A stretch of DNA of 64,000 bases from Actinomycetota bacterium (GTDB lineage Bacteria > Actinomycetota > UBA4738 > HRBIN12). A program made the translations under genes and the position numbers. This document shows positions 3,317-21,453 of this stretch, in pieces (the first letter of the stretch is position 1; each line of letters opens with the position of its first letter). The stretch covers positions 8,523 to 72,522 of the forward strand of contig JAJPHY010000054.1 of the NCBI GenBank assembly GCA_021325015.1. Direction: 5' to 3'. Under the pieces are notes generated by a model. The model worked only from the letters and a program-made list of their open reading frames with translations, was not told the DNA's origin and ran no database searches.

Positions 3317-3323
3317 CTCGGCA

Positions 3324-3389
3324 TCACGCTAGCCGTTTTCACGCGTTCTTCACGCTCCCGCCCGCGGCTTTCACGCCGCGCTTACACGC
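3324..3389. promoter_or_regulatory. Array of five (T)TCACGC direct repeats in the divergent kdpD / K+ permease promoter; candidate response-regulator (KdpE-like) operator
   Basis: CACGC occurs at 3325, 3340, 3351, 3372 and 3385, spaced 15, 11, 21 and 13 nt, the last in TTACACGC form. OmpR-family regulators bind direct repeats with ~10-11 bp periodicity. Confidence 0.4.
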
Positions 3390-3426
3390 CTGGTTCGAAG
3401 CTCGGGGCAGAGAGGACGGCGGTAAG

Positions 3427-5931: not shown

Positions 5932-5938
5932 CGCGGCG

Positions 5939-6598
5939 ATGCGGGTGATCATCGTTGGGTGCGGGAGGGTCGGCTCCGAGCTGACCATCCAGCTCGCCAA
6001 GGCCGGCCACGACGTGACGATCATCGACAAGCGCCCCTCGGCGTTCGACCGCCTGCCGCCGGGGTTCGAGGCGCGAACGATGGTCGGGTTCGGGTTCGAC
6101 CGCGAGCTGCTCGAGGAGGCGGGGATCAAGGACGCCGACGCGTTCATCGCGGTGACCAACGGTGACAACTCGAACATCGTGGCGGCCCGCGTGGCGCGCG
6201 AGCACTACCACGTGCCGAAGGTCATCGCCCGGATCTACGACCCCCGACGGGCCGAGATCTACGAGCGACTGAACATCCCCACGGTGGCGACGACGACCTG
6301 GGGCGTGAAGCAGATCATGCTGATGCTGTCGCACGCCCGCGAGGAGATCAAGGAGAGCCTCGCCGGCGGCGACCTGTTCCGGATGCGGATCGGCGTCCCC
6401 GGGCACCTGGTCGGCAAGCCCGTCAACCGGCTGAACGTCGACGGCAAGGTCGTCGTGGTGGCGGTCGATCGCGGCGGGCACGGGTTCATCCCGGTCGCCT
6501 CGAGCACGTTCCAGGAGGGGGACTTCGTCGGCCTGATCGTGCACAAGGACGCGCTCGAGCTCCTCGACGAACTCCTGGCCCCGACCGTGGAGCACTGA
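5939..6598 (+). CDS. trkA: TrkA-N/TrkA-C K+ transport regulatory subunit (ceoB-like)
   Basis: Begins MRVIIVGCGRVGSELTIQLAKAGHDVTIIDK with a Rossmann GxGxxG motif. The C-terminal TrkA-C (RCK_C) domain is present. Confidence 0.85.
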   Translation: MRVIIVGCGRVGSELTIQLAKAGHDVTIIDKRPSAFDRLPPGFEARTMVGFGFDRELLEEAGIKDADAFIAVTNGDNSNIVAARVAREHYHVPKVIARIYDPRRAEIYERLNIPTVATTTWGVKQIMLMLSHAREEIKESLAGGDLFRMRIGVPGHLVGKPVNRLNVDGKVVVVAVDRGGHGFIPVASSTFQEGDFVGLIVHKDALELLDELLAPTVEH

Positions 6599-6599
6599 G

Positions 6600-7295
6600 A
6601 TGCGCGTGGTGATCTCCGGAGCCGGGGCCGTCGGACGCCACCTGGCGTCCGACCTTCGTCTGCGCGGTCACGATGTGCTGCTGATCGAGCAGGACCCGGC
6701 CACGCTCAAGGAGGCCAAGGAGTGGGCGCCCGACGTCGAGTACGTGCTCGGCGACGCGTGCGAGCTCTGGGTGCTCGAGAAGGCGAACCTGAAAACCGCG
6801 GACGTCGTCGTGGCCTCGACCGGGGACGACGAGGACAACCTGGTGACCTCGCTCCTCGCCAAGCAGGAGTACGCGGTCCCCCGCGTGCTCGCCCGGGTGA
6901 ACCACCCGCGCAACGAGTGGATGTTCACCGAGCAGTGGGGGGTGGACGTCGCCGTCTCGGTCCCCCACCTGCTCACGGCGCTCGTGGAGGAGGCGGTGAC
7001 CGTCGGCGACCTCGTCCGCCTGCTGCGTCTGGAGGGCGGCCGGGTGGCGCTGGTCGAGCTCACGATGCCCGACACGTCGCCCAACGCCGGCCGCCCGATC
7101 TACGAGCTCCGTCTGCCCGCCGACTCGGCGATCGTGGCCGTGCTCCGCGAGGGCCACGTGGTCATCCCGCAGCCCGAGTCGGTGATCGCGGCGGGGGACG
7201 AGGTCCTCGCCCTGTCCTCGGCCGAGTCGGAGGCGGCGCTCAGGCTGGCGATCGTCGGCGAGGGCGTCCCCGGCGGCTCGCCGCTCGACGAGTAG
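6600..7295 (+). CDS. trkA: TrkA-N/TrkA-C K+ transport regulatory subunit (ceoC-like)
   Basis: Begins MRVVISGAGAVGRHLASDLRLRGHDVLLIEQD, with a C-terminal RCK_C domain. The ATG lies 1 nt after the upstream stop. Confidence 0.85.
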   Translation: MRVVISGAGAVGRHLASDLRLRGHDVLLIEQDPATLKEAKEWAPDVEYVLGDACELWVLEKANLKTADVVVASTGDDEDNLVTSLLAKQEYAVPRVLARVNHPRNEWMFTEQWGVDVAVSVPHLLTALVEEAVTVGDLVRLLRLEGGRVALVELTMPDTSPNAGRPIYELRLPADSAIVAVLREGHVVIPQPESVIAAGDEVLALSSAESEAALRLAIVGEGVPGGSPLDE

Positions 7296-7317
7296 GGGCG
7301 CGGGGCCTCGGACAGAC

Positions 7318-7343
7318 AGACCCTGCGGACTAGTCTGTTTCAG
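7318..7343. repeat. Palindromic element GACTAGTCTG-TTT-CAGACTAGTC (10-bp stem) downstream of trkA; member of an ACTAGTCTG repeat family
   Basis: Read directly from the sequence. Related copies occur at 23196..23216 and 37840..37858. All sit 0-25 nt after + strand stops, locally GC-poor within a 70 % GC context. Confidence 0.5.
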
Positions 7344-7383
7344 ACTAGTCTGAGGGCCGACTGCTCCGGTGCCGCGCCGAGCG

Positions 7384-7797
7384 TCAGGCCGCGAAGTCGA
7401 AGCTCGGGTTCACCATCCGGCGCCCCTGACGGAGCTCCCCGACCACGCCTTCCACGATCAGACGCGTGCCGAGGGTAAGCCCGGGGATCGTCCGGCGCCC
7501 CATCCAGATCACCGACATCTCGCCGGTCCCGTCCGAGATCAGCGCCTCGAGCGACTCGAACCCCTCGATCGGCCGCACGGTGATTCGCTTGACCACCCCG
7601 GCCACCCGAACCCGGTCCCGGGTCGGGACCTCCGCGATCCGCGTCGTCCCCGGAACCTGCGAGGCCCACCGTCGGATCTCCTCGGCCAGGCGCTGCTCGT
7701 CGCTCTCCGCCATGCGGGAGAGGAAGCGACGGAACGGGTCGAGGATGCCCACGCGCCTATCGAAGGTGGTCGAGGCTCCGGCCGCAACTGGAGGCAC
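7384..7797 (-). CDS. OB-fold (tRNA_anti-like) nucleic-acid-binding domain protein
   Basis: RVRVAGVVKRITVRPIEGFESLEALISDGTGEMSVIWMGRR...RLIVEGVVGE is a typical OB-fold barrel. An alternative start at MAESDEQ (7713) would give 109 aa. Confidence 0.6.
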   Translation of the reverse strand: MPPVAAGASTTFDRRVGILDPFRRFLSRMAESDEQRLAEEIRRWASQVPGTTRIAEVPTRDRVRVAGVVKRITVRPIEGFESLEALISDGTGEMSVIWMGRRTIPGLTLGTRLIVEGVVGELRQGRRMVNPSFDFAA

Positions 7798-7800
7798 GGC

Positions 7801-10065
7801 TCAGGAGACGGCCGCCTCCTCCTTGGTCGTCTCGCGCGGGATCAGCAGCTCGCTCTTGCGGGCCTTCGAGATCCAGATCGCGGCCGCGAGGAGCACGGCC
7901 GCCGCCGCCGCGAACAGGAACCGCAGCGACCCGTCCCGAAACTCGACGACGAGCGGTGCGATCAACAGGGCGACGAGGTTCATGACCTTGATCATCGGGT
8001 TGAGCGCCGGACCGGCCGTGTCCTTGAAGGGGTCACCGACCGTATCGCCGATGACGGCGGCCCTGTGCTGCTCGCTGTTCTTGCCGCCGTAGTGGCCGGC
8101 CTCGACGTACTTCTTGGCGTTGTCCCAGGCCCCGCCGGAGTTCGACAGCATGACCGCCAGAAGCTGGCCGGTCAGGATCGCTCCCGCGAGGAACGCCCCG
8201 AGCGCCTCGGCCTTGAGGAGGAACCCCACGATCACCGGCGCCAGCACTGCGAGCAGGCCGGGCGTCATCAGCTCGCGGAGCGAGGTCTTCGTGCAGATGT
8301 CGACCACGCGCGCGTACTCGGGCTTCTCGGTGTAGTCCATGATTCCCGGGTGCTCGCGGAACTGGTTCCGCACCTCCACGACCACCTGCGAGGCGGCTCG
8401 GCCGACCGCGCGGATCGCGAGCGAGGAGAACAGGAACCCCACCGCGCCGCCGACGAGCAGCCCGACCAGCACGTCCGGCCGATCGACGGGGATCGGGAAC
8501 TCCTGGAGGTTGCCCTTGCCGAGCGCCTTCAGCACGGCGTCGGCGAACGACCCGAACAGCGAGGTCGCGGCGATCACGGCGGTCGCGATCGCCATGCCTT
8601 TGGTGATGGCCTTGGTCGAGTTCCCGATGGCGTCGAGGCCCGTGAGGATCTCCGCCGGACGCCCCTCGAACTCGCCGGACATCTCGGCGATGCCCTGCGC
8701 GTTGTCGGAGACCGGTCCGTACGTGTCCATCGACACGATGACGCCCACGGTCGTGAGCATCCCCATCCCGGTGAGCGAGATGAAGTACAGGCGCTCGAAG
8801 TTGTTGTTGCCGAGCAGGTACGCTCCGGTCACGGCGGCCGCGATCACCAGGATCGCCCACACCGTCGACTCGAGCCCGACCGAGAAGCCCGACAGGATCG
8901 TCGTCGCCGGGCCCGTCTGGGTGGCCTCGGCGATCTCGCGCACCGGCTTGTACTTGGTGTCGGTGAAGTACTGCGTGAGGATCTGGATGACCGAGGCGAG
9001 GATCAGTCCGAACAGCACGGCGACCGCCGGCCGGTAGTCCTTCATGTACCAACCGGCGATCACGAAGACGGCCGCCGCCGAGAGACCGGCCGACACGAAG
9101 AACCCGCGGTTGATCGACTTCATCCCGTGCTCGTCCTCGCTCCGGGGCGAGACCGCAAGGATGCCGACGATCGACGTGATCACGCCGACGGCGCGGACGA
9201 ACAGCGGGAACATCACGCCGCCGATCGCGCCGACCTGCGAGCCGGCGAACGCGGACGCGCCGAGGATCAGCGAGGCGACGAGCGTGACCTCGTAGGACTC
9301 GAACAGGTCGGCCGCCATCCCGGCGCAGTCGCCGACGTTGTCGCCCACGTTGTCGGCGATCACGGCCGCGTTGCGCGGGTCGTCCTCGGGGATCCCCTTC
9401 TCCACCTTGCCGACGAGGTCGGCCCCGACGTCGGCCGCCTTGGTGAAGATCCCGCCGCCCACCCGCATGAACATCGCGAGGAGCGCCCCGCCGAACCCGA
9501 AGCCGACGAGCACGTCGGTCGCGTCGGTCTTGTACACGATCAGGATCACGGTGGCCCCGAGAAGCCCCAGCCCGACGGTGAACATCCCCGCCACCCCGCC
9601 GGCGCGGAAGGCCAGCCGCATCGCGCGCCGCAGGCCCGATTCCCGCGCCGCATCGGCCACCCGGACGTTCGCGCGCACGGCCAGCCACATGCCCGTGAAC
9701 CCGGTGATCCCGGAGAAGCCCGCGCCCAGGATGAAGGCGATCGAGCGCCCGAACCGGATGAACAGGTCGCCGTGCACGGCGCCCTCGGGCACCGGCAGCA
9801 GGAAGAAGATCGCCACCGTGAGGATGACCAGGAACACACCCACCGTGGTGAACTGCCGCCGCAGGTAGGCGCTCGCCCCCTCCTGGATCGCCCGCGCGAT
9901 CTCCTTCATCTTGTCCGTGCCCTGGGGCGCGGCGAGCACCTCGCGTACCAGGTAGTAGGCGAAGAGCAGCGCGATCAGCGAGATGCCCAGGATGATCCAG
10001 AGCGCCCTGTCTTCGAACGAGCCGAACACCGCCTTGATCGGCCCGCCCTCGGCGGCCAGGTACAT
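7801..10065 (-). CDS. hppA: Membrane-bound H+-translocating inorganic pyrophosphatase (V-PPase), probably the K+-independent type
   Basis: MYLAAEGGPIKAVFGS...ADNVGDNVGDCAGMAADLFESYEV...DAIGNSTKAITKG, where the Lys in the GNxxKA motif marks the K+-independent type. ATG 10065 is preceded by GAGGAGG. ORF 7801..10725 carries a spurious ~220 aa N-terminal extension. Confidence 0.9.
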   Translation of the reverse strand: MYLAAEGGPIKAVFGSFEDRALWIILGISLIALLFAYYLVREVLAAPQGTDKMKEIARAIQEGASAYLRRQFTTVGVFLVILTVAIFFLLPVPEGAVHGDLFIRFGRSIAFILGAGFSGITGFTGMWLAVRANVRVADAARESGLRRAMRLAFRAGGVAGMFTVGLGLLGATVILIVYKTDATDVLVGFGFGGALLAMFMRVGGGIFTKAADVGADLVGKVEKGIPEDDPRNAAVIADNVGDNVGDCAGMAADLFESYEVTLVASLILGASAFAGSQVGAIGGVMFPLFVRAVGVITSIVGILAVSPRSEDEHGMKSINRGFFVSAGLSAAAVFVIAGWYMKDYRPAVAVLFGLILASVIQILTQYFTDTKYKPVREIAEATQTGPATTILSGFSVGLESTVWAILVIAAAVTGAYLLGNNNFERLYFISLTGMGMLTTVGVIVSMDTYGPVSDNAQGIAEMSGEFEGRPAEILTGLDAIGNSTKAITKGMAIATAVIAATSLFGSFADAVLKALGKGNLQEFPIPVDRPDVLVGLLVGGAVGFLFSSLAIRAVGRAASQVVVEVRNQFREHPGIMDYTEKPEYARVVDICTKTSLRELMTPGLLAVLAPVIVGFLLKAEALGAFLAGAILTGQLLAVMLSNSGGAWDNAKKYVEAGHYGGKNSEQHRAAVIGDTVGDPFKDTAGPALNPMIKVMNLVALLIAPLVVEFRDGSLRFLFAAAAAVLLAAAIWISKARKSELLIPRETTKEEAAVS

Positions 10066-10268: not shown

Positions 10269-12026
10269 TCACGTGAGCGGCCCGACGACCGCGCCGAGCT
10301 CGCGGTCGAGGTCCTCCAGCCCGGCACGGAGGGCGTGCCCCGCGGCGGCGACCTCCTCCGCGTGCTCCGCGCTTCGCTCCCGCTCCTCCTGCGCGCGACG
10401 AACGCCCGCGCGGAGGCTCTCGACCGTGCTCGAAAGACGGTCCACGAGCTCGCGCTCGAGCGCGCGCACGCTCTGGTCCAAGCGCGTGACGAAGTCGTAG
10501 CGGAGCCGACCCATGTGCTTGTCGACCAGCCGTGGGATCGCCTCCATCACGTCCCGCTCCACGAGCTTGCGGGCCACCTTCCTCGGGAGGTACCGCCGCA
10601 GGTCGGGAAGGAGCGACTCCAGAATGGTCGGGACCTCGAAGAAGGAGTAGGAGAACTCGGTCCTCCGCGAGAGCTCGACGCGGGCCACCCCGGTCTCGAG
10701 GCGGATCCCGAGGATGTCGCCGCACACGCGGACGGTCTCCTCCGCGATCTGCTCGGCCTCCTGGACGAACCGGGCGGTCGCCTTCCGGAACGCCTCGGCC
10801 ACCCGCCGATCCTCGGCCCCTCGCCAGCGGTCGACGTCGGCGCGCAGCCGGGCCCGCACGAGCTCGTCCAGCTCGGAGCCCATCGTTCGGACCTCCTCCG
10901 CCCGGTCCAGGAACTCGCGGGCCACCCGACGGAGCTGATCCTCCTCGCGCCGTCGCAGCGCCTCGAGGTCGGCCTCGATCGTCGCGACCAGCCGGTCGCG
11001 CTCCTTCCGCACGAGCGCCCGTACGTCGTCCTGGCGCTCGGCCGCGCGGGCGAAGACCCGCTCCATCTCCTCGACGCGGCGGGCGAGGTCCTCCTGCGGC
11101 AAGGCCGCCGCCCGCTCCTCCACGTCGATCGAGTTCCGGAGGTCGGCGATCAGCCGCCGCGCGCGCTCGGCGACCGACTCCAGGATCGTGCCTCCCTTCT
11201 CGCGGAGCAGGAACGCCCGGAAGTCGCGCTCGAACGCTGGGAGCCCTGAGTCCTCCAGCGCCGTCGGGTCGGCTTCAAGCTTGGCGCGCAGCGCGTTCCG
11301 GGCGCTCACCGGGTACAGGCGAACCTCGTGGCCCACGGCATCGGCGATCACGCCTCGGGTGAACTCGATCGCCTCCTCGCGATCGGACTCGGACAGATAG
11401 TCGACCTTGTTCAGGACGAAGAACATCCGGGCCGCCTCCTCCCGCACCTCCCGGAGGAACGCCCGCTCGGCGTCGGAGATCGGCGGATCGGCCGTCGTGA
11501 GGAAGATCGCGGCGTCGGCCTCAGGCACGAACGCCCGGGCCGCCTCGGTGTTGTGGGCGTAGACGCTCCCCACGCCCGGCGTGTCGACCAGGAACACGCC
11601 GTCGCGGAGCTCCTCGGCCGGGTAGTGGAGGACGGCGCGCTCCACGCCCCGGCGGTTCTCGGGGTTCCCACGCTCCGTGACGAAGGCGGCGAGCTCGTCG
11701 ACACCGATCGGCTCGACCCGGCCGCCCGTACGCACCACCTCCGCGCGGACCTCATCGCCCCAGGTCACCGCCGTGACGACCGAGGTGAGCGGGACGACGG
11801 CGGAGGGCAGGACCTCCGCGCCGAGCAGCGCGTTGACGAACGTGGTCTTTCCCCGCTTGAACTCGCCGACCACCACCACGTTGAAGCGTTCCTCGGCGAG
11901 CTTGTTCGACAGCGCTCGGCAGGCCTCCGCCACTCCGTGCCCGTTGCGCCGCTCGGCGAGCTCGGCGAGTCGAGCGAGGAGCGCGGTGAGGCGGTCGCGG
12001 CCCTCCGCGTACGTCCGGTCCCCCAT
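10269..12026 (-). CDS. Bacterial dynamin-like GTPase (BDLP, IniA/IniC-like)
   Basis: P-loop VVGEFKRGKTTFVNALLG, switch motif DTPGVGS and NKVD, followed by a long coiled-coil stalk region. The SD AGGAG lies 5 nt before the ATG. Confidence 0.8.
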   Translation of the reverse strand: MGDRTYAEGRDRLTALLARLAELAERRNGHGVAEACRALSNKLAEERFNVVVVGEFKRGKTTFVNALLGAEVLPSAVVPLTSVVTAVTWGDEVRAEVVRTGGRVEPIGVDELAAFVTERGNPENRRGVERAVLHYPAEELRDGVFLVDTPGVGSVYAHNTEAARAFVPEADAAIFLTTADPPISDAERAFLREVREEAARMFFVLNKVDYLSESDREEAIEFTRGVIADAVGHEVRLYPVSARNALRAKLEADPTALEDSGLPAFERDFRAFLLREKGGTILESVAERARRLIADLRNSIDVEERAAALPQEDLARRVEEMERVFARAAERQDDVRALVRKERDRLVATIEADLEALRRREEDQLRRVAREFLDRAEEVRTMGSELDELVRARLRADVDRWRGAEDRRVAEAFRKATARFVQEAEQIAEETVRVCGDILGIRLETGVARVELSRRTEFSYSFFEVPTILESLLPDLRRYLPRKVARKLVERDVMEAIPRLVDKHMGRLRYDFVTRLDQSVRALERELVDRLSSTVESLRAGVRRAQEERERSAEHAEEVAAAGHALRAGLEDLDRELGAVVGPLT

Positions 12027-12031
12027 CGAGC

Positions 12032-12058
12032 GCTCCTACCCCCGCCATCGGTAGGAGC
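12032..12058. promoter_or_regulatory. Palindrome GCTCCTACC-N9-GGTAGGAGC, 5 nt upstream of the dynamin-like gene start and containing its SD
   Basis: Read directly from the sequence. A near-identical copy at 12195..12221 abuts the ATG of the divergent gene. Confidence 0.45.
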
Positions 12059-12104
12059 CATCAGCCCGGAGCGGGCGGTCGGCGGGCCCCATCGCCTGTT
12101 GTGG

Positions 12105-12132
12105 AGTATAGGCATCGGTCCCTCCTATACTG
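12105..12132. promoter_or_regulatory. Inverted repeat AGTATAGG-N12-CCTATACT in the centre of the divergent promoter
   Basis: Perfect 8-bp arms read from the sequence. The element is AT-rich and -10-like (TATAGG / TATACT). Confidence 0.35.
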
Positions 12133-12194
12133 CGTCGGGCGATTCGTTCGCCCGAGGCGATGGAGCTCGCCGAACCGCTCGACGTGAGCTGATA

Positions 12195-12221
12195 GCTCCT
12201 ACCCGTCGGGGAGGTAGGGGC
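12195..12221. promoter_or_regulatory. Palindrome GCTCCTACC-N9-GGTAGGGGC directly abutting ATG 12222 and containing the SD
   Basis: Read directly from the sequence. It is a twin of the element at 12032..12058. Confidence 0.45.
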
Positions 12222-12665
12222 ATGGAGCGGAAGAACGACACCGCCGGGCGGCTCGAGGACCTCGTCCTCACCTTGCGCGACACCGAGGTTCCGGCGGAGA
12301 CTCACCCGGTGCACATGCCCGACGACGCGAGCCCCGCCGATCCGGCCGAAGCTCGCTTCCTGCTGTACGTCGGCCTGTTCGACGCGCTGGCGGACCGAGT
12401 CCTGTCCGAGGCTCCCTCCGAGGAGGAGGGCGAGGTCCATCTTCGGCGCGCGCTGGCCGCCGCCATGAGCGCCGACTCCGTCCTGAAGTTCGAGCGACAC
12501 GAGCGCCAGACCCGTGCCGACCAGAACGAGCTCATGGCGCGGATGCGGTCGCGAGAGATCCAGATGACCGAGCGCTGGATGCTCCCTCGGCTGCGCGAGG
12601 ACATCGACGCCTACCGTCGCAGAATCGAGGGCCTTCGTCGCGCTCTGCTGGAGGAGGCGGAATGA
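12222..12665 (+). CDS. Hypothetical protein (147 aa, acidic, predicted helical)
   Basis: ATG has an upstream GGAGG. The composition looks coding. The stop overlaps the next start (ATGA). Confidence 0.55.
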   Translation: MERKNDTAGRLEDLVLTLRDTEVPAETHPVHMPDDASPADPAEARFLLYVGLFDALADRVLSEAPSEEEGEVHLRRALAAAMSADSVLKFERHERQTRADQNELMARMRSREIQMTERWMLPRLREDIDAYRRRIEGLRRALLEEAE

Positions 12666-13192
12666 CCGCCGGAGTCGAGATCCTCGCCGCCGACTGGGCC
12701 GCGCTCGTGCCGACCGGCCGGCTGGAGCCGGACGAGGTCCGCGGCCTCCTCGCGCGCGGCCGCGCGATCGCGGCGGCCGCTCCCGCCGGGGCGATGCCCG
12801 AGCGTCTCTCGCGGCCGGAGCGCCTCGAGCGGCTCCGCCGGTCCCTCGCGGTCGCGGCGGCCCGGGCGGCCGTTCACCGCTTCGAGCTCGTCAGGCAGCG
12901 CGAGCGCTTCGAGCGCTCGGAGCGCGACGAGGTCGAGACCTACGAGCGCCATCTCGAGCTCCACAAGGACGTGGTGCCTCCGCTCAAGCTCGAGGCCCGG
13001 GCCCTGCGCGCCGAGGTGCGGAGCCTGGAGGCGGAAGCGCGCGCACGCGGCATCGACGTCGACGCCATCCAGCCCGCGATCGACTGGCGGAACACGCTCG
13101 CCGTCGACGGCTACGAGGCTCCGAAGTACGAGACGCCCGAGAGCCGCAAGCGGGCCGCCGTCGAGTTCTTTCGTCGGGTGGGCAAACGGTGA
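12662..13192 (+). CDS. Hypothetical coiled-coil protein (176 aa)
   Basis: Translationally coupled to the upstream gene. Charged heptad-like repeats (ERLERLRRSLAVAAARA...ELVRQRERFERSERDEVETYER). Confidence 0.55.
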   Translation: MTAGVEILAADWAALVPTGRLEPDEVRGLLARGRAIAAAAPAGAMPERLSRPERLERLRRSLAVAAARAAVHRFELVRQRERFERSERDEVETYERHLELHKDVVPPLKLEARALRAEVRSLEAEARARGIDVDAIQPAIDWRNTLAVDGYEAPKYETPESRKRAAVEFFRRVGKR

Positions 13193-13244
13193 GGCGAGCC
13201 TCGAGACGAGCGGGCGCTCGGTCGCGGAGATTGAGGAGGGTGGC

Positions 13245-13979
13245 GTGGTCGTAGCGCGCCGGGCTCGAGCGCTCCGAGACGAGGTCGGCTACCACGATCT
13301 CCTCGCCGACCTCCGCAAGCCCGGGTGCCCGGCCTGCCACGGGGGCCACCGCGCCGCGTGGCGCTACCTCGACGCACTGCTCTGGGAGTTCGTGAACGAT
13401 CCGGAGGTCCGCGCGCGGCTCCGCGCGTCCCTGGGGTTCTGCCGGGAGCACGCCCTGATGCTCCTGGCGGTCGCCTCCAACCGGTCCGCCGGCAGCGGCG
13501 TCGGTATCCTGTACGAGGACCTGCTCCGCCACGTTCGCGAGGAGCTGATCTCGGCCTCCCGGAGCCGGACGCGGAGCGCCAGCCGGAGAGGGCGGAGGTC
13601 GTCCGAGCGCCCCGTCCGCGGGCGGTGCCCCGCGTGCGAGAGCGCAAACTTCGTGGCCACGAACTACGCCCGGATCCTTGCCACCGCACCCGAGGACTCC
13701 CCGCCGATCGAGGGCATCCGGCGGCCGATGCGGGGCATCTGTCTGCCGCACCTCGAGCTCGGTCTCCGGCACGCGCGGACCGAGGCCCAGGCGGCGCGCT
13801 TGGTCGAGCTCTACCTCCGCGGTGAGGAGGAGCTCCGCACCGACCTCACGGAGTTCGTTCGCAAGCAGGACTACCGGTTCCAGAGCGAGGGCCTGACCGA
13901 CGCCCAGGCGAGCTCGTGGATGCGGGCGGTGTACCGTCTCGTCGGCGAGCCCCTGCCCCGCAAGCCACCCGAGCGATGA
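13245..13979 (+). CDS. Hypothetical protein with two CxxC-type cysteine clusters (244 aa; putative Zn-binding)
   Basis: GTG start with GAGGAGG 6 nt upstream. Cysteine clusters GCPACH...FCREH and RCPACES...GICLPH. Confidence 0.55.
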   Translation: MVVARRARALRDEVGYHDLLADLRKPGCPACHGGHRAAWRYLDALLWEFVNDPEVRARLRASLGFCREHALMLLAVASNRSAGSGVGILYEDLLRHVREELISASRSRTRSASRRGRRSSERPVRGRCPACESANFVATNYARILATAPEDSPPIEGIRRPMRGICLPHLELGLRHARTEAQAARLVELYLRGEEELRTDLTEFVRKQDYRFQSEGLTDAQASSWMRAVYRLVGEPLPRKPPER

Positions 13980-15205
13980 GCGCCACGAAAACGAGCCGGC
14001 GCGAGTCGGTCCTGCGCAACCGCACGGTCGCCGGGATCGGCCTCGCGAGCTTCTTCTCCGACGCGGGCCACGAGATGGCGACGGCTGCCCTCCCCGCGTT
14101 CCTCACCTCGCTCGGGGCGCCGGCCGCCGCGCTCGGAGCCATCGAGGGCGTCGCCGACGCGGCCCTGTCGACCTCAAAGCTCGCGGGCGGCGTCGTCGCC
14201 GACCGCAGGGGCACCGACCGCCGGCGGGTGGCCGCCGCCGGCTACCTGGTCACGGGTCTCGGGTACGGCTCGTTTGCCTTCGCGGGGTCCTGGCCGGCCG
14301 TGGCCCTGGGCCGGGCGGTCGCCTGGGCCGCGCGCGGATTGCGGACGCCGGCCCGCGAGGCGCTCTTGGCCGAGGCCGTCCCTCCCGAGTACCTGGGCCG
14401 CGCCTTCGGCATCGAGCGCGCTGGGGACTCCCTCGGCGCGATCGCCGGACCGCTCGTCGCCGCCGCCCTCCTGTCGACGATCGGCTACCGGCACCTGTTC
14501 TGGATCAGCTTCTTCCCAGCCCTCGCGGCCGCGCTGTCGGTGCGATTCCTCGCCCGCGAGGTCCCGCGGGCGCGAGACGTCGCCCATCACGTGGGGATGA
14601 GCATCCGGGAGCTCGCGACCGCGCCGGGCCTGTTCCGATCGCTGCTCGCCGGGGTCGGGCTGTACGGGCTCGGCAACTTCTCCGCCACTCTGCTGATCCT
14701 TCGCGCAACCCAGATCCTGTCCTTTGAGGGCCGGAGCGCCGCGTCGGCGGCCGCGACGGCCGTGCTGCTCTACACGGCGCACAACGCGGCGAACGCGTTC
14801 GCCGCCTACCCGGCCGGAGCCCTCGCCGACCGGATCGGTCGCCGGGTGGTCCTCGTGATGGGCGTGGCGTTGTTCGCCCTCGCCTGCGTGGCCTTCGCGT
14901 TCTCCCCCTCGAGCCTGCCGATCCTCGCCGCGCTGTTCGTGGCGATCGGGGCCTCAACCGCGCTGGTCGAGACCGCGGAGGGGAGCCACGCCGCCGAGGT
15001 CCTCCCGATCGCGCTGCGTGGCAGGGGATACGGGGTCGTCGGGCTCGTCGACGGGGTAGGCGATCTCGTCTCGAGCCTCGTCGTCGGCGTCCTGTGGACC
15101 GTGGCCTCGCCGGCATGGGGGTTCGCGTACGCGGCGCTGCTCTCGATGCTCGGCGCGCTCGTGCTGATCCCCGGCTGCCTCACCGCCCGCCGGCCGAGCG
15201 CCTGA
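13976..15205 (+). CDS. MFS transporter
   Basis: Twelve predicted TM segments. Contains MFS motif A-like GRAVAWAARGLRTPAREALLAEAVP. The ATG at 13976 overlaps the upstream stop (ATGA). Confidence 0.8.
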   Translation: MSATKTSRRESVLRNRTVAGIGLASFFSDAGHEMATAALPAFLTSLGAPAAALGAIEGVADAALSTSKLAGGVVADRRGTDRRRVAAAGYLVTGLGYGSFAFAGSWPAVALGRAVAWAARGLRTPAREALLAEAVPPEYLGRAFGIERAGDSLGAIAGPLVAAALLSTIGYRHLFWISFFPALAAALSVRFLAREVPRARDVAHHVGMSIRELATAPGLFRSLLAGVGLYGLGNFSATLLILRATQILSFEGRSAASAAATAVLLYTAHNAANAFAAYPAGALADRIGRRVVLVMGVALFALACVAFAFSPSSLPILAALFVAIGASTALVETAEGSHAAEVLPIALRGRGYGVVGLVDGVGDLVSSLVVGVLWTVASPAWGFAYAALLSMLGALVLIPGCLTARRPSA

Positions 15206-16064
15206 CGAGCCGAACGAACTCGCGCGCGGCCGGCGAGAGCGGCGTACGGCGGAACACGAGCCCGATCGTCCGTCGGACCCGCGGCCGGAGCGGGGCGACG
15301 ACCGCGCCCCTGCGCGCCGCGTCGTGAGCCTGCGGGGCCGGCAGCAGCGTCACCCCGGCTCCGGCCAGCACGAGCGGCAGGATCGCCTCGCGCTCGTCGG
15401 TCTCGACCGCGACGAGGGCGCGGGCGCCCGCCGCCTCGAACGCCCGATCCAGCAGGCGGCGTGTCGACGTCCCGGGAGGGCCGGTCACGATCGGAAGGTC
15501 CCGCAGTCTCGCGACCGTGATCCGCCCCGAAGGCGGGGGCTCGAAGCCGGGCGGACAGACCGCCAGGAGCTCCTGGACGAGGAACGGCTCGGCGATCAGG
15601 TCCTCGTCCTCGACCGGCACCTCGGAGAGCCCGACCTCGGCTCGACCCGAGCGCACGAGCACGGCGACGGATCGGCCGGCCTCGGGCTGGAGGACACGGA
15701 CCGACACCCCAGGAAACTCGCGGCGGAAGGCCCCGACGAGCGGGGCGAGGGGATCCGCCGCGAGCGTTGGAAGCGCGGCCAGGTCCAGGCGTCCGCTCTC
15801 CAGCCCGGCGACCGCCGCGGCGGCCGCGCGCGCGTTCTGCACGTCCCGGACGATCCCGCGCGCGAACTCGAGGAACGCCTCGCCCGCCGAGGTGGGGATC
15901 ACCGAGCGCCCGAGCCGGTGGAACAGCTCGACCCCGAGCTCCCGCTCGAGGCTCCGAACGCCCTGCGACACCGAGGGCTGGGAGACATAGAGGGCCTCGG
16001 CCGCCCGAGAGAAGCCGCCGTGGTCGGCGACGGCGATCGCGTAGTCGATGAGCCTGAGTTCCAT
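15180..16064 (-). CDS. LysR-family transcriptional regulator
   Basis: N-terminal HTH reads MELRLIDYAIAVADHGGFSRAAEALYVSQPSVSQGVRSLE. The C-terminus is a substrate-binding domain. Confidence 0.85.
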   Translation of the reverse strand: MELRLIDYAIAVADHGGFSRAAEALYVSQPSVSQGVRSLERELGVELFHRLGRSVIPTSAGEAFLEFARGIVRDVQNARAAAAAVAGLESGRLDLAALPTLAADPLAPLVGAFRREFPGVSVRVLQPEAGRSVAVLVRSGRAEVGLSEVPVEDEDLIAEPFLVQELLAVCPPGFEPPPSGRITVARLRDLPIVTGPPGTSTRRLLDRAFEAAGARALVAVETDEREAILPLVLAGAGVTLLPAPQAHDAARRGAVVAPLRPRVRRTIGLVFRRTPLSPAAREFVRLVRRSAGGR

Positions 16065-16079
16065 AGGCTCAGCCTATCG

Positions 16080-16111
16080 TTTCGATGCGAAATCAGTGTT
16101 GAGCTTCTCAA
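16080..16111. promoter_or_regulatory. Two LTTR-type T-N11-A palindromes (TTTCGATGCGAAA and TTGAGCTTCTCAA) in the lysR/tauE divergent promoter
   Basis: Read directly from the sequence. The classic LysR box architecture is T-N11-A with 5-bp inverted arms. Confidence 0.45.
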
Positions 16112-16133
16112 CGATCGGTCGTGCGATGGAATC

Positions 16134-16919
16134 GTGGACGCGGGCAGATGCGCGGTCGTGGCCGCCGTGGCCGGGTGGACGTGGCTGTGGGTTGGGCTGA
16201 TCGGCCTCGCCGTCGGGTTCAGCGCGGGCCTGTTCGGCAAGGGCGGGTCGGCGGTCGCCACCCCTCTCCTGCACGCGGCGGGCGTTCCGGCCTTCGTCGC
16301 GGTGGCCGCCCCGCTGCCCGCCACCGTGCCCTCGACGCTCGCGGCGTCGTGGGCCTACGCCCGCGCGCACCTGGTGGACCGGCGGATCCTCGCCTGGAGC
16401 GCCGGGTTCGGGCTCCCGGCAACCGCCCTCGGGGCGCTCGCGACGCGATGGATCGACGGAGAGCTGCTGGTGCGCGCAAGCGAGCTGGTGGTGGCCGGGC
16501 TCGGGATCCGGTTCCTCCTGCGGCCGGGCTCGCCGACGGAGAAGGCGGCCGAGGCGCCGCCAGATCGCGCTCGGCTGGCGGTGGTCGCCACGCTCGTCGG
16601 GGTCGCCTCGGGACTGCTCGCGAACAGCGGCGGGTTCCTGCTCGCGCCGCTGTACCTGGGGGTGCTGCGCATGCCGATCAAGCGCGCCTTCGCCACCTCC
16701 CTCGCGGTGGCGAGCCTGCTCGCCGTTCCCGGCACGCTCGTCCACTGGGCCCTCGGCCATATCGACTGGGCGGTGGTCGCGGTGTTCGGGGCAAGCTCGA
16801 TCCCCTTCTCGTACCTGGGCGCGCGAGTCGCGCTCCGCTCCGATCCCGTTCGGCTGGAGCGGGTCTACGGGGCCGCCCTCACCTTGCTCGGACTCGGGCT
16901 GTTCGCACTGGGGCGCTGA
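16134..16919 (+). CDS. TauE/SafE (DUF81) family sulfite/anion exporter
   Basis: TM-rich protein with GLFGKGGSAVATPLL and ANSGGFLLAPLYLGVL. The start is uncertain (GTG 16134 or a downstream GTG). The ORF-track N-terminus from 15324 is antisense to lysR. Confidence 0.65.
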   Translation: MDAGRCAVVAAVAGWTWLWVGLIGLAVGFSAGLFGKGGSAVATPLLHAAGVPAFVAVAAPLPATVPSTLAASWAYARAHLVDRRILAWSAGFGLPATALGALATRWIDGELLVRASELVVAGLGIRFLLRPGSPTEKAAEAPPDRARLAVVATLVGVASGLLANSGGFLLAPLYLGVLRMPIKRAFATSLAVASLLAVPGTLVHWALGHIDWAVVAVFGASSIPFSYLGARVALRSDPVRLERVYGAALTLLGLGLFALGR

Positions 16920-16965
16920 GCCCCCGGCCGGCGGCGCCGGACGCCGCACAGCCCGCCACGTTCGG

Positions 16966-18309
16966 CTACGAGGGCGCCCGCTCCCGCGTGCGCAGCAGCA
17001 GGAAGCCCAGCAGCCCGGTGAGCACGGCCGCGAGCACGACCCCCACCCGAGCGGCGTCGAGCAGCGGGCCGGTGAGCGAGAGCTCGGCGACGAAGAGGGA
17101 CACGCTGAACGGCACCCCGGCTGCGGCCCCGACGCCGAGCACCCGCCTCCAGGTCAGGCCGGCCGGGAGACCGCTCGCGCCCAGTCGCACCGCCAGCCAC
17201 GACCCCAGGACGATCCCCAGGGGCTTGCCCAGAGCGCGGGCCAGCAGCATCCCCACCACCACCCGCTCGGAGCTCGTCGTGGCGAGCGCGTGCGGGACGA
17301 TCCGGACGCCGGCGTCGGCCAGGACGAACACCGGGAGGACCACGTAGCTCGTCCACGGGTGCAGGGCGGCCTCCAGCCTGGCGAGCGGCGAGACCGCGCC
17401 GCGGCAGAGCCTCGAGAGCTCGAGCCACTGCGCCGCGTCGGCATCGGGCGGAGAGGGATCGTCCACGGTCTCGTCGGCGATCCGGTGGGCCTCGCGGCTC
17501 ACCGCGCGGGGTCGGTGGAAGGGCACCGCCGGCGTGAGCAGCCCCATGGCGACGCCCGCGAGCGTCGGGGACACCCCCGAGCCGTGGAGCGCGAGCCACA
17601 TCGCGGTGCCGAGCGCGCCGTAGACGACGCTCGAGCGGACGTCGATCCGGCGGGCGACGAAGACCACGGCGCCGATGGCCAGCGCGAGGGCGACCGACCC
17701 CGCGGAGAGGCGGTGGGAATAGAAGATCGCCACGGCCGCGATCGTGCCCAGGTCGTCCGCGATCGCCAGCGACAGGACGAACACGCGGAGGGAGGAGGGC
17801 GCTCGAGGAAACGCGAGCGACAGAACGCCGAGCGCGAGCGCGATGTCGGTTGGCATCGCGGCGCCCCAGCCGTGCGAGGCGGGCGGGCTCGGGTTCGCCA
17901 CCAGGTACAGGAGCGCGGCGACGACCATCCCCCCGAGCGCCGCGGCCGCCGGCAGGATCGCCGCGCGCCGGCTCCGCAGCTCCCCCGTGAGAAGCTCCCG
18001 TTTGACCTCGAGCCCGGCCACGAGGAAGAACAGCGTCATCAGCCCGTCGCGGATCCAGCCCCGGAGGTCGTCCTCGACCCCCCACCGCCCGAGCCGAACG
18101 ACGAGGTGGCGGCTCCACAGATCCTCGTACGCCCCCCGGAGCGGCGAGTTGGCCCACACCAGGGCGACCGCGAGCGCGAGCAGCAGCAACAGGCCGCTCG
18201 CCACCTCGGTCTCGAGGAACGACTGCAACGGCCGGATCACCCGCCGGGGAATCGGCCGGTCCGAGCGCGACCACGGCAGGCGGAGCTCCTCGCCCCGTTC
18301 GACCTTCAC
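16966..18309 (-). CDS. nhaA: Na+/H+ antiporter NhaA (paralog 1)
   Basis: Contains LFFLVAGLEVKRELLTGELR, AIADDLGTIAAVAIFY and PWTSYVVLPVFVLADAGV. The GTG start at 18309 overlaps the stop of the upstream paralog (GTGA). Confidence 0.8.
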   Translation of the reverse strand: MKVERGEELRLPWSRSDRPIPRRVIRPLQSFLETEVASGLLLLLALAVALVWANSPLRGAYEDLWSRHLVVRLGRWGVEDDLRGWIRDGLMTLFFLVAGLEVKRELLTGELRSRRAAILPAAAALGGMVVAALLYLVANPSPPASHGWGAAMPTDIALALGVLSLAFPRAPSSLRVFVLSLAIADDLGTIAAVAIFYSHRLSAGSVALALAIGAVVFVARRIDVRSSVVYGALGTAMWLALHGSGVSPTLAGVAMGLLTPAVPFHRPRAVSREAHRIADETVDDPSPPDADAAQWLELSRLCRGAVSPLARLEAALHPWTSYVVLPVFVLADAGVRIVPHALATTSSERVVVGMLLARALGKPLGIVLGSWLAVRLGASGLPAGLTWRRVLGVGAAAGVPFSVSLFVAELSLTGPLLDAARVGVVLAAVLTGLLGFLLLRTRERAPS

Positions 18310-19736
18310 CGCCGGCGCTCCTCCTCGGCCGGCCGATCGCCCCGGAGGATCGCGTAGCCGAGGCCCCCCGCGACGACCGAGGCGAGCAGCACGCCGAGGC
18401 GGGCGTGCTCGAGCAGGGCGCCGCTCGGGAAGGCGAGCTCCGCGACGAAGATCGAGAGGGTGAAGCCGATCCCGGCCACGGACGCGGCCCCCGCGAGCCG
18501 CCTCCACGTGACGCCCTCGGGGAGGGTGCCCACGCCCGTCCGCACCGCCAGGGCCGAGGCGCCCAGGATGCCGACGAGCTTGCCCACAACCAGCCCCACC
18601 ACGACGCCGAGCGTGACGCGGCTCGCCGCGGCGCTTCGGAGGGCGTCCGCGGACAGGCGGACCCCGGCGTTCGCGAGCGCGAACAGCGGGACCACGACGA
18701 ACGTCGGCCACGGGTGGAGGGCGGACTCCAGGCGGGCGAGGGGCGACACGGCCTCGCGCGAGAGCCGTGCCAGTGAGAGCCACTGCGGCGCATCCGCATC
18801 CGGCGGCCATGGATCGTCCACCGTCTGATCGGCGACCCGGTGCGCCTCACGGCTCACGGCCGCCGGGCGCTGGAAGGGCGCCGCCGGCGTCAGCAGTCCC
18901 AGAACCACGCCGGCGATCGAGGCATGCACGCCGGACTCGAACACGGCCACCCAGAGCGCGACCCCGAGCGCCAGGTAGACCGCACCAGCCCGCACGTGGA
19001 TCCGGCGCAGGAGCACGGCGAGCGCGACCAGGGCGAGCGCGACCAGCAGCGGGACCCACGAGACCGATCCGGAGTCGACAACCGCGATCACCACGATCGC
19101 GCCGATGTCGTCGACGATCGCGAGGGTGAGCAGGAAGGGCTTCAGCCCCCCGGGGGCGCGACCCGCCGCGAGCGTCAGCCCGCCCAGGGCGAACGCGATA
19201 TCGGTCGCCATCGGGACGCCCCATCCGCGTCCGCCGTCCCCGCCGGCGTTCAGCGCCAGGTACAGGACGGCGGGCACCACCATCCCGCCGACCGCGGCCA
19301 CGACCGGCAGAGCGGCCGCGCGCATCGTGCGGAGCTCCCCGGTCAGGACCTCACGCTTGATCTCCAGTCCCACGACGAGGAAGAACAGCGCCATGAGGCC
19401 GTCGTTCACCCAGTGCCGCAGGTCCTGCGAGACGGGCACGCCCCCGGCTCTCAGGGTGAGCCTCGTGTGCCAGAGGGTTTCGTACGCGCCCCTCCAGGGC
19501 GAGTTCGCCCACCCGAGGGCGATCACGGCGGCGGCGAGGAGGACCAGGCCGCCTGCGGACTCGGTCCCCAGGAAGGCCTGCAGGGGCTGCACGATCCGGC
19601 GCGGGAGCGGGCGTTCCGAACGGGACCAGGGCGTGCGGATACCCTCGCCCAGCGCGGTCGGGTCGGTCGGTCGGTGCGCCACGCGGTCCTCGTCGCCGAC
19701 CAGGCTTCCCGGCGCACCCTCGATGGACGGCCTCAT
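18306..19736 (-). CDS. nhaA: Na+/H+ antiporter NhaA (paralog 2)
   Basis: Contains LFFLVVGLEIKREVLTGELR and AIVDDIGAIVVIAVV. ATG 19736 gives the start MRPSIEGAPG. The conserved leader PWSRSERPLPRRIVQPLQAFLGTE is shared with paralog 1. Confidence 0.75.
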   Translation of the reverse strand: MRPSIEGAPGSLVGDEDRVAHRPTDPTALGEGIRTPWSRSERPLPRRIVQPLQAFLGTESAGGLVLLAAAVIALGWANSPWRGAYETLWHTRLTLRAGGVPVSQDLRHWVNDGLMALFFLVVGLEIKREVLTGELRTMRAAALPVVAAVGGMVVPAVLYLALNAGGDGGRGWGVPMATDIAFALGGLTLAAGRAPGGLKPFLLTLAIVDDIGAIVVIAVVDSGSVSWVPLLVALALVALAVLLRRIHVRAGAVYLALGVALWVAVFESGVHASIAGVVLGLLTPAAPFQRPAAVSREAHRVADQTVDDPWPPDADAPQWLSLARLSREAVSPLARLESALHPWPTFVVVPLFALANAGVRLSADALRSAAASRVTLGVVVGLVVGKLVGILGASALAVRTGVGTLPEGVTWRRLAGAASVAGIGFTLSIFVAELAFPSGALLEHARLGVLLASVVAGGLGYAILRGDRPAEEERRR

Positions 19737-19773
19737 CGTACCCGATGTCCCCACACGTAGGATTGGAGACACC

Positions 19774-21453
19774 GTGAGACGCCCCCGATTCGGCCTGCCC
19801 GAACGCGACGCGCTGCACGCCGTCCGCCTCCGGTGGCAACGGACCGTGGTCCTGGCAGGCCTCACCGGCGTCCTCACCGGCCTTGGCGTGGCGTTGTTCG
19901 ACTGGCTGACCGCGAACGTGCTCCTCGATTCGGTCCGGAGGTCCCCGCGCTGGGCTCAGACGCTCGCGCCGGGGCTCGGCCTCCTCTTGGCGGCCCTCCT
20001 GCTGCGCTTCGCCGCTCGCGGCGCGAGTCCCTCCACCTCAGACGAGTACATCCGCTCCTTCCACGAACGCGGCGCCCGCCTGCCGCTCACCCCCGTGGTT
20101 GGGCGGATCCTGGCCTCGGTGGCCACGCTCGGGTCGGGAGGGGCGATGGGGTTCGAAGGCCCGTCCATCTACCTCGGCGCCGCTGTCGGCTCGCTTCTCC
20201 AGCGGAGGTTCTCGCGGTTCTTCTCGCGGGAGGACGCCAAGGTGCTCCTCGTGGCCGGCGCGGCCGCGGGCGTCTCGGCGATCTTCAAGGCGCCGGCGAC
20301 CGGCGCGCTCTTCGCGCTCGAGGTGCCGTTCCAGGAGGACCTCGCCGCGCGGGCGGCGCTTCCCGCGGTGGTCTCCTCGGCGGCCTCCTACCTGACGTTC
20401 GTGGCGTTTCACGGCACCACCCCGCTGTTCTCGGTGCGGGGCAATCCGGGATTCCAGCTGAACGATCTCGTGGGCGCCGCGCTGGTGGGCCTGCTCTGCG
20501 GGACCGGTGCCCGCGCGTTCGTCTGGCTGATCCGGCAGGCGAAGCGGGCCCAGCGATCCGTCCCGCCGCGGGTGGCCTGGCTGGTCGGCGGCGCGGCGCT
20601 GGCCGGAATCGGCGCGCTCGGGTTCGCCGCCTTCGACGGACCGCTCGCGCTCGGGCCCGGCTACCGGGCCGTCACCTGGCTCACCGATCCGACCCGCGAC
20701 CTCGGCCCGATCGCCCTGCTCCTCGGGTTGCGGGCGCTCGCCACGGCGTTCACGCTGGCCGGCGGGGGCGCCGGCGGGCTGTTCATCCCGCTCGTCGTGG
20801 AGGGCGCGATCCTCGGTCGCCTGATCGCCGGCGTGATCGGGCTGACCCGAACGACCCTGTTCCCGCTGGTGGGAGCCGCCGCCTTCCTCGGTGCCGGCTA
20901 CCGGACGCCGATCGCCGGCGTGATGTTCGTCGCCGAGTCCACCGGGAGGCCCGGGTTCGTGGTCCCCGCCCTGATCGCGACGGCCGTCGCCCAGCTGGTG
21001 ATGGGTCGCTCCTCGATCTCCCCGTATCAGATCCGCATGCGCGGGGGCCACGTCGAGGAGCGGCTGCGGATGCCGGTCTCGACCGTCCTCGTCCGCGACC
21101 CCTACACGGTGCCGCCGACCGCGACGGTCGAGGACCTGCTCCACCGCCACTTCGTACAGGCGCGCTCGCGCGCGATCCCGGTCGCTGAGGTGAACCGATA
21201 CCTCGGCATGGTGCGGCTCGAGGACGTCGACGAGGTGCCGCGGGAGGAGCGGGCCTCGCGGACGGTCGCCGAGGTCATGCGCCCCGACGTCCCGGCAGGC
21301 TCGAGCGGATGGACGCTCCGCCACGCGGTGGCCGCGATGGAGGCCGCCGACGTGGATCAGCTCGCGATCGTCGAGGGCGAGACCCTCGTGGGCGTGGTGA
21401 GCATGGACGACATCGTCAGCCTGGGCGAGATCCTGGAGGCGACCTCCGACTGA
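19774..21453 (+). CDS. ClC-family chloride channel / H+-Cl- exchanger with C-terminal CBS pair
   Basis: GSGGAMGFEGP selectivity motif and GYRTPIAGVMFVAE, with two C-terminal CBS domains. GTG 19774 has GGAG 6 nt upstream. An in-frame ATG at 19723 is the alternative. Confidence 0.8.
   Translation: MRRPRFGLPERDALHAVRLRWQRTVVLAGLTGVLTGLGVALFDWLTANVLLDSVRRSPRWAQTLAPGLGLLLAALLLRFAARGASPSTSDEYIRSFHERGARLPLTPVVGRILASVATLGSGGAMGFEGPSIYLGAAVGSLLQRRFSRFFSREDAKVLLVAGAAAGVSAIFKAPATGALFALEVPFQEDLAARAALPAVVSSAASYLTFVAFHGTTPLFSVRGNPGFQLNDLVGAALVGLLCGTGARAFVWLIRQAKRAQRSVPPRVAWLVGGAALAGIGALGFAAFDGPLALGPGYRAVTWLTDPTRDLGPIALLLGLRALATAFTLAGGGAGGLFIPLVVEGAILGRLIAGVIGLTRTTLFPLVGAAAFLGAGYRTPIAGVMFVAESTGRPGFVVPALIATAVAQLVMGRSSISPYQIRMRGGHVEERLRMPVSTVLVRDPYTVPPTATVEDLLHRHFVQARSRAIPVAEVNRYLGMVRLEDVDEVPREERASRTVAEVMRPDVPAGSSGWTLRHAVAAMEAADVDQLAIVEGETLVGVVSMDDIVSLGEILEATSD

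Follow-up and report, generated by a model that had tools for sequence, protein, structure and literature searches.

In a 64-kb stretch of an Actinomycetota genome (contig JAJPHY010000054.1, positions 8,523 to 72,522; hereafter the window), five adjacent genes form two divergent transcription units, each of which is very probably controlled by its own fluoride riboswitch (Table 1). One unit consists of a gene for a dynamin-like GTPase (DLP). The other comprises genes for two small orphan proteins (p147 and p176), a protein of the family DUF6062, and a transporter of the major facilitator superfamily (MFS). Our overall explanation, which we regard as probable, is that these genes make up a fluoride-stress module whose proteins have the kinds of role discussed below; the specific assignment of membrane repair plus transport is put forward tentatively.

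Scanning the whole 64 kb against Rfam, with the gathering thresholds as cutoffs, gave two matches only, both to the fluoride riboswitch family RF01734 and both in the 195-nt spacer between the DLP and p147 genes. Each aptamer matches the model along its entire length (positions 1–64 of 64), where the gathering score is 34. With a custom covariance model the DLP-side aptamer scores 68 bits and the p147-side aptamer 69.5 bits, and a filter-free scan of the window with this model found no riboswitch beyond the two. The aptamers end very near the genes: the 3′ end is 18 nt before the start codon of the DLP gene on one side and 13 nt before that of p147 on the other. Judged by sequence, both leader RNAs are ordinary RF01734 members, and the riboswitch class itself is well known.

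Each leader is predicted to fold its Shine-Dalgarno (SD) sequence into a hairpin of 9–10 bp, which is present in both the minimum-free-energy and the centroid folds. On the DLP side, the 3′ strand of the aptamer's pseudoknot, GCUCCUACC, pairs with GGUAGGAGC, in which the SD sequence GGAG stands 7 nt upstream of the start codon (ATG at 12026). On the p147 side, GCUCCUACCC pairs with GGAGGUAGGGGC, which includes the SD sequence GGAGG at 12210–12214, immediately ahead of the ATG at 12222. In both leaders the 3′ strand of the pseudoknot, (G)CUCCUACC, thus has an alternative pairing with the SD region. Because the SD-sequestering hairpin shares the pseudoknot strand, we interpret both elements as translational ON switches: in the folding model, formation of the pseudoknot and sequestration of the SD sequence are mutually exclusive, as is usual for ON switches. 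Between the aptamers lie 41 nt that include two TATACT hexamers, at 12126–12131 on the plus strand and at 12105–12110 read on the minus strand, each approximately 15–25 nt upstream of the P1 helix of its aptamer. The pair resemble the −10 boxes of two divergent promoters placed back to back; a scan for the strict sigma-70 consensus called no promoter in the region, the hexamers included.

Table 1. Features of the fluoride-riboswitch locus (window coordinates) and members of a recurrent small helical family in other loci.
Feature	Position	Strand	Details
hppA, H+-pyrophosphatase	7801–10065	−	Window flank
DLP, dynamin-like GTPase, 585 aa, BDLP/mitofusin class	10269–12026	−	Pfam Dynamin_N, 93.8 bits
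Predicted expression platform of DLP riboswitch	12032–12058	−	9-bp hairpin, −21.6 kcal/mol
Fluoride riboswitch aptamer, DLP 5′ leader	12045–12105	−	RF01734, 47.2 bits, E = 5.8e-10
Divergent intergenic region, 195 nt	between DLP and p147		Two RF01734 matches
Fluoride riboswitch aptamer, 5′ leader of p147-p176-DUF6062-MFS operon	12147–12208	+	RF01734, 48.7 bits, E = 2e-10
Predicted expression platform of p147-side riboswitch	12195–12221	+	SD hairpin, −18.0 kcal/mol
p147 ("A" family), acidic helical soluble orphan	12222–12665	+	Homologue family alignment
p176 ("B" family), basic coiled-coil orphan	12662–13192	+	38 homologues, AlphaFold2 model
DUF6062 (PF19538) Cys/His protein, 244 aa	13245–13979	+	Pfam match
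MFS transporter, 409 aa	13976–15205	+	Pfam MFS_1, E = 3.5e-41
LysR gene, convergent	after MFS gene		Pfam
c17/c29 family member	L103 1038–1559		
c17/c29 family member	L144 10049–10480		
c17/c29 family member	L120 10800–11225		
c17/c29 family member	L161 4859–5314		

The link between these genes and fluoride riboswitches extends well beyond the window. In orthologous loci whose DLP is 49–62% identical to that of the window, an RF01734 match lies 4–22 nt upstream of the DLP start (L083, L085, L087, L004 and L009; homologous loci are cited by L numbers). RF01734 also precedes genes for DUF6062 (L008, L081), a His phosphatase (L087) and a Na+/H+ exchanger (L085). We surveyed a sample of 80 metagenomic DLP loci (66–29% identity to the window DLP) with a covariance model built from 11 riboswitch instances, counting riboswitches on the same strand as the DLP gene in the 75 loci that have at least 150 nt of upstream sequence. 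A riboswitch is present upstream in 45 of these 75 loci, within 300 nt in 29 of them and at 300 nt to 3 kb in the other 16. By identity class, the riboswitch is within 300 nt in nine of 11 loci with a DLP at least 45% identical (and at the greater distance in none), in 11 of 29 loci at 35–45% (with 10 more at the greater distance), and in nine of 35 loci below 35% (with six more). The curated Rfam model confirms the riboswitches in the distant loci that were re-tested with it. A parallel survey of DUF6062 covered 80 species-representative loci, mostly from Chloroflexota, and among the 76 with enough upstream DNA a riboswitch lies within 300 nt in 26 and within 4 kb in 12 more (38 of 76 in total).

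These RNAs have the properties of conserved structures. In a set of 46 aptamers from the window and the DLP loci, 97.8% of the pair cells are standard pairs, and 11 of the 14 pairs have changed on both sides. The pseudoknot, which joins GGAG in the P1 loop to CUCC at the 3′ end, was left out of the covariance search model; it is 99.6% paired, with four of its six pairs covarying. Slid controls are 38–58% paired. The expression platforms of the relatives vary with base composition: high-GC loci have SD sequestration and low-GC loci have a hairpin followed by a U-run terminator, a shift that, as read from sequence, is as expected for real switches. At the level of sequence, then, the riboswitch association of both the DLP clade and DUF6062 is shown to be conserved across distant lineages. 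Some loci have further RNA elements. L087 has a second fluoride riboswitch (14237–14297), which precedes genes for His_Phos_1, DUF2180 and two MutS_V-domain proteins, with an enolase gene between the two units. A SAM-I/IV riboswitch in L009 (341–453) and a T-box leader in L106 (13972–14240) are unrelated elements; from what we take to be the distribution of T-boxes, the latter may hint at the phylum of this low-GC DLP locus.

Regional G+C content is about 72%, and real genes were told from the many shadow open reading frames (ORFs) by their third-position GC, which is of coding type (0.86–0.93) in all five genes. This confirms the 585-aa DLP, 147-aa, 176-aa, 244-aa Cys-rich and MFS genes that a first-pass annotation, made from the sequence alone, had described. 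The longest ORF of the MFS gene starts at a GTG at 13916; the gene calls in other assemblies correspond to 409 aa. The annotation's characterization of the small proteins also stands: p147 is acidic and helical (isoelectric point 5.05), p176 is a charged coiled-coil protein (isoelectric point 9.7, with a long helix in its AlphaFold2 model), and all eight residues of the four Cys clusters in the 244-aa protein are invariant in 26 homologues. Its statement that the partner genes have no assigned function agrees with our searches, in which neither p147 nor p176 matched anything in Pfam, NCBIfam, PADLOC or (using family profiles) the PDB and the Cys protein matched a family of unknown function only. 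Translational coupling of all four plus-strand genes is borne out in part. The p147/p176 and DUF6062/MFS pairs each overlap by ATGA, but p176 and the DUF6062 gene do not overlap: 52 nt, with a ribosome-binding site GAGGAGG, lie between them. Similarly, divergent transcription of the DLP gene is real in the window, and the same layout is found in two independent assemblies of the same organism, but it is peculiar to this lineage and the relatives have a single operon.

In the relatives that we compared (L083, L085, L087 and L090), the operon begins with DLP, and the p147-like gene overlaps it. The orthologous order is riboswitch, DLP, p147-like, p176-like, (His_Phos_1), DUF6062, MFS, with overlapping stops, and hppA and NhaA genes flank the operon, one on each side. 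Because the relatives have DLP first in the same operon, we interpret the arrangement in the window as a lineage-specific inversion of DLP, after which each half keeps a riboswitch of its own. Back-to-back divergent fluoride riboswitches occur in relatives too, the second one driving an enolase gene (L090) or a cation/H+ antiporter gene (L085, L093). The order in L087 is DLP, A, B, DUF190, NUDIX, MFS, with genes for enolase, His phosphatase and MutS-domain proteins nearby. His_Phos_1, a phosphatase of the phosphoglycerate mutase family, is located between the p176-like and DUF6062 genes in relatives (for example at 10665–11261 in L085); it is a 52-aa remnant in L083 and L084 (10736–10894 in L083), and in the window it has gone, leaving the 52-nt spacer at 13193–13244. 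The p147-like and p176-like genes follow DLP in every locus with a DLP at least 53% identical and enough downstream DNA. DUF6062 is found in 25 of the 80 DLP loci, at 20–170 nt from the DLP gene in many distant ones (DLPs of 30–37% identity among them), and it directly adjoins DLPs that are only 30–40% identical. The neighbourhood comparison that the first-pass annotation had called for therefore shows partners that are co-conserved with DLP in a recurring operon order.

The DLP matches Pfam Dynamin_N with an E-value of 1.6e-26 (bit-score cutoff 27) and has intact G1 (GEFKRGKTT), G3 (DTPG) and G4 (NKVD) motifs. In an alignment of 15 homologues the columns of GxxxxGK[ST], the switch-I threonine (T81), DTPG and NKxD are invariant. 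In searches with a family profile, the closest relative with a solved structure is Nostoc BDLP (2J68, E = 2.3e-39, residues 35–446), followed by Campylobacter DLP1/2, IniA (E = 6e-17) and mitofusins, so the earlier label "IniA-like" should give way to a closer kinship with Nostoc BDLP. The likeness to BDLP of Nostoc punctiforme (2J68/2W6D) covers the GTPase domain and what may be part of a helical stalk, with comparable size and motifs. However, the window DLP is about 110 residues shorter, and its match to Pfam Dynamin-like_hel_bact is below threshold (17.8 bits against 28.3). Its gene also stands alone instead of in a tandem DLP pair, is coupled to those of a pair of small coiled-coil partners, and is very probably under riboswitch control. 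Hydropathy analysis found no transmembrane segment in the DLP. A hydrophobic stretch, FSYSFFEVPTILESLLP (residues ~464–480; about 458–480), is conserved among its homologues and may be a membrane-binding tip. Two other loci have unusual DLP genes. In L004 (4492–6175) the gene is broken into five overlapping ORF fragments, due either to frameshift errors or to its being a pseudogene, and the riboswitch and downstream genes are intact. The distant locus L120 (6101–10668) has two tandem DLP genes (594 and 906 aa) behind a riboswitch and CPA antiporter and universal stress protein (USP) genes, so the fluoride-linked clade also includes the classic paired-DLP form.

The first-pass annotation had suggested that the genes could be a membrane-surveillance or defence unit, inducible by cell-wall antibiotics or phage, and as an alternative to a fluoride module we considered an anti-phage or envelope-drug unit resembling Eleos/LeoABC, DynA or IniBAC. 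The DLP does match the PADLOC models of both LeoA and LeoBC at about 1e-16, and IniA is a detectable relative. A single protein that matches both Leo models, however, points to generic DLP similarity, and the neighbours include no second DLP and no LeoBC, IniB or IniC partner; none of the four neighbouring proteins matches PADLOC. The second component that Eleos/LeoABC requires is thus missing, and the partners present are unrelated to that system. IniA/IniC of mycobacterial IniBAC and DynA of Bacillus resemble what we propose for the window DLP, being bacterial DLPs that are induced by stress and thought to keep the membrane intact, but their signal is cell-wall drugs acting through protein regulators, as opposed to the predicted action of fluoride through an RNA switch, and the window lacks IniB, IniC and a fused double DLP. 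A fluoride riboswitch stands before both units, and this link is conserved across families, so the signal named by the sequence is fluoride rather than a drug or phage. The genes around the module are ion-homeostasis genes and not a defence island, so that context and regulation alike point to ion or fluoride stress. We therefore regard a defence or drug-surveillance role as very improbable.

The ion-homeostasis neighbourhood occupies both flanks (1862–10065 and 15180–21453). It includes genes for a KdpD-like histidine kinase, a K+-transporter-like permease, two TrkA proteins, H+-pyrophosphatase, LysR, TauE, two tandem NhaA antiporters, and a CLC protein with CBS domains. Neither the Rfam scan nor the filter-free scan of the window found a fluoride riboswitch before hppA, NhaA, CLC or the other flank genes.

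Both p147 and p176 lack transmembrane segments. The p147 family is small: a set of 1.84 billion proteins holds only 54 representative clusters of it, and R107, W119, P122 and L124 are invariant in its alignment. For p176 we found 38 homologues, none of which has a Pfam domain; the protein has an invariant VPPLK motif, and its AlphaFold2 model (pLDDT 72, pTM 0.38) is dominated by a 78-residue helix spanning residues 51–128. Small coiled-coil proteins encoded next to DUF6062 in Chloroflexota align to p176 with an hhalign probability of 70–83% (E ~1e-5), and are probably its remote homologues; p147 aligns to the same proteins weakly (7–34%). Homology between p147 and p176 themselves was rejected, because their hhalign probability is 3.6%, which is not significant, and they have only a motif pattern in common. 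A separate family of helical proteins of about 140 aa with a conserved "RYG" motif (clusters c17 and c29, related to each other at an hhalign probability of 96.6%) recurs in distant fluoride operons with DLP or DUF6062 (Table 1). We tried this family as a relative of p147 and p176, and by hhalign it is unrelated to them.

The 244-aa protein matches DUF6062 (53 bits against a cutoff of 27) over almost the full profile (residues 25–233, profile positions 17–237 of 243), and PF19538 is present in all 120 homologues among the matches listed, apart from a few fragments. Its conserved Cys and His residues are in the motifs C28PAC31, C66REH69, C128PAC131 and C166LPH169, which form a duplicated CxxC…CxxH pattern. 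Each of the two sites (C28, C31, C66 and H69; C128, C131, C166 and H169) is predicted to bind a metal ion, most likely Zn. AlphaFold2 models the protein as all-helical with high scores (pLDDT 91.4, pTM 0.85); the model has no fold match in the PDB, and a sequence search of the PDB with the family profile gave no meaningful match. The MFS protein has multiple strongly hydrophobic segments and matches MFS_1 with 141.7 bits (cutoff 33.4), reaches no NCBIfam subfamily cutoff, and carries a conserved SD-x-G-HEMAT motif in its first transmembrane segment. Its similarity to NorA and QacA is distant. Transporters of the same MFS family are found in 29 of the 80 DUF6062 loci and in 20–27 of 83 DLP loci. 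In Chloroflexota (L021 972–9361; also L017, L025, L046 and L037), DUF6062 is often present as two to four tandem paralogues, and a fluoride riboswitch is frequent at the start of the operon. Their companions include a cation/H+ antiporter, USP-CBS proteins, and coiled-coil proteins of about 140 aa and about 200 aa, and in L021 an MFS protein of the same family is fused to an N-terminal zinc-ribbon/HEAT-like region.

This MFS protein could itself be the effector, with DUF6062 as its cytoplasmic partner, exporting fluoride, hydrogen fluoride or a phospho-metabolite, in which case DLP, p147 and p176 would be passengers in a shared regulon, tied to it neither physically nor functionally. DUF6062 and MFS do occur widely without DLP (an MFS gene is in 29 of the 80 DUF6062 loci and a DLP gene in five), L087 conversely has DLP, A and B without DUF6062, and in the window the two sets of genes are separate transcription units. 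But DUF6062 lies 20–170 nt from DLPs in many distant lineages even where no MFS gene is adjacent (for example in L103, L131, L134 and L168), an adjacency closer than a shared regulon requires. The MFS protein itself has only distant similarity to drug:H+ antiporters. On this evidence we think a purely transport-centred module unlikely.

Besides MFS, the genes found with DLP in the 83 loci code for CPA antiporters (14 loci), USPs (14), enolase (13), His phosphatases (9–10) and H+-pyrophosphatase (7). We take USPs to belong to the fluoride regulon as well. Metal-fluoride analogues of phosphate (GDP·AlF4−, MgF3−) readily trap GTPases of the dynamin family, and a different explanation of the locus is that more DLP is made simply to replace GTPase that fluoride has inhibited, as compensation or as a decoy, so that DLP has no fluoride-specific role. 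Replacement of this kind has been proposed for enolase and pyrophosphatase. In keeping with this, enolase, H+-pyrophosphatase and His phosphatase, all of them enzymes of phosphoryl transfer, share these riboswitch-controlled neighbourhoods. In the parts of the literature on the fluoride response that we drew on, overexpression of inhibited enzymes is a known strategy (PMC11139923). The same parts list exporters, Na+/H+ antiporters, pyrophosphatase and enolase in the fluoride regulon and do not name USP; the enolase, H+-pyrophosphatase and Na+/H+ antiporter genes found with DLP coincide with that list (PMC11139923). DLP, however, seems to be expressed in these loci behind the riboswitch only, with nothing to suggest that it supplements a housekeeping copy, and its co-transcription with the dedicated orphans p147, p176 and DUF6062 argues for a specific function. 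Compensation therefore appears quite unlikely.

The mechanism that we propose for the fluoride-stress module is as follows. At low cytoplasmic fluoride, the SD sequence would be sequestered in both leaders. Fluoride, bound as an Mg-F cluster, would stabilize the pseudoknot and so free the SD sequences, allowing translation of DLP on one side and of p147, p176, DUF6062 and MFS on the other. DLP would act as a GTP-driven machine for membrane remodelling or repair that protects the cytoplasmic membrane during fluoride stress, its stoichiometric partners probably being the acidic p147 and the basic p176, and the Cys3His protein DUF6062, of presumed Zn-binding type, would work with MFS in the export or exchange of a fluoride-related solute. 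We favour a GTP-driven membrane maintenance complex because DLP belongs to the membrane-working BDLP class, because fluoride is reported to induce genes of membrane integrity and to cause lysis in several bacteria (PMC11139923), and because DLP is tightly coupled to acidic and basic coiled-coil partners.

Several observations weigh against this interpretation. The membrane action of DLP, the binding of p147 and p176 to it, and the cargo of MFS all go beyond what the sequence contains; fluoride binding and induction are read from sequence and predicted fold; and the DUF6062 metal sites are deduced from residue invariance. Roughly 40% of the DLP loci in the sample have no riboswitch; most of these belong to a group at ~31–33% identity with a different gene context. 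The p147 and p176 genes are absent from the loci whose DLP is 46–52% identical (L100–L102, where L101 has only about 0.9 kb of downstream sequence) and from all DLP loci more distant than these, so the parts may share a regulon without forming one machine. DUF6062 occurs without DLP in 75 of the 80 species-representative loci, mainly in Chloroflexota. The remaining five, which have DLP, span Actinomycetota, Armatimonadota and Eisenbacteria.

What the window contains thus appears to be a known regulatory system with a seemingly undescribed cargo. The P1 and P2 helices, the pseudoknot, the competing expression platform and the classic regulon genes nearby are those of the fluoride regulon (RF01734), whereas the cargo here is a DLP, two orphan coiled-coil proteins, DUF6062 and an unclassified MFS protein, and the operon has no Fluc or CLC-F gene. 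Our literature search found no report combining fluoride, riboswitch and dynamin and none naming DUF6062, in a comparison that lay outside the gene lists of the original regulon paper. The regulon members listed in the review passages that we used (including PMC11139923) are exporters, antiporters, pyrophosphatase, HAD phosphatases, enolase, formate hydrogen lyase, chorismate mutase, MutS, and K+ and Cl− transporters, and among these there is no GTPase, no orphan protein like p147 or p176, no DUF6062 and no MFS protein of this kind. For DUF6062, of which the window protein is a full-length member and for which the Pfam entry gives no function, the invariant double CxxC…CxxH pattern, the confidently modelled orphan all-helical fold and the frequent location behind fluoride riboswitches are new.

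Because a riboswitch names the signal to which its downstream genes respond, the locus provides a testable context for this DLP clade, the p147-like and p176-like families, DUF6062 and the MFS clade. Few natural triggers of bacterial dynamin-like GTPases are known, and if DLP acts in fluoride tolerance, membrane dynamics would be linked to halide toxicity and a mechanism would be added to those of the Fluc and CLC-F exporters. The two leaders are, by prediction, also small translational switches for fluoride that belong to high-GC DNA. The five proteins might even constitute an unrecognized, exporter-independent branch of microbial fluoride resistance, in which a fluoride-induced DLP machine, with its own coiled-coil and Zn-protein partners, remodels or repairs the membrane, or drives sequestration in vesicles or minerals, and the new MFS clade moves a fluoride-linked solute. 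We consider this broader idea rather doubtful. A role of DLP in fluoride tolerance would also be relevant to the engineering of fluoride-tolerant strains for the degradation or synthesis of organofluorine compounds.

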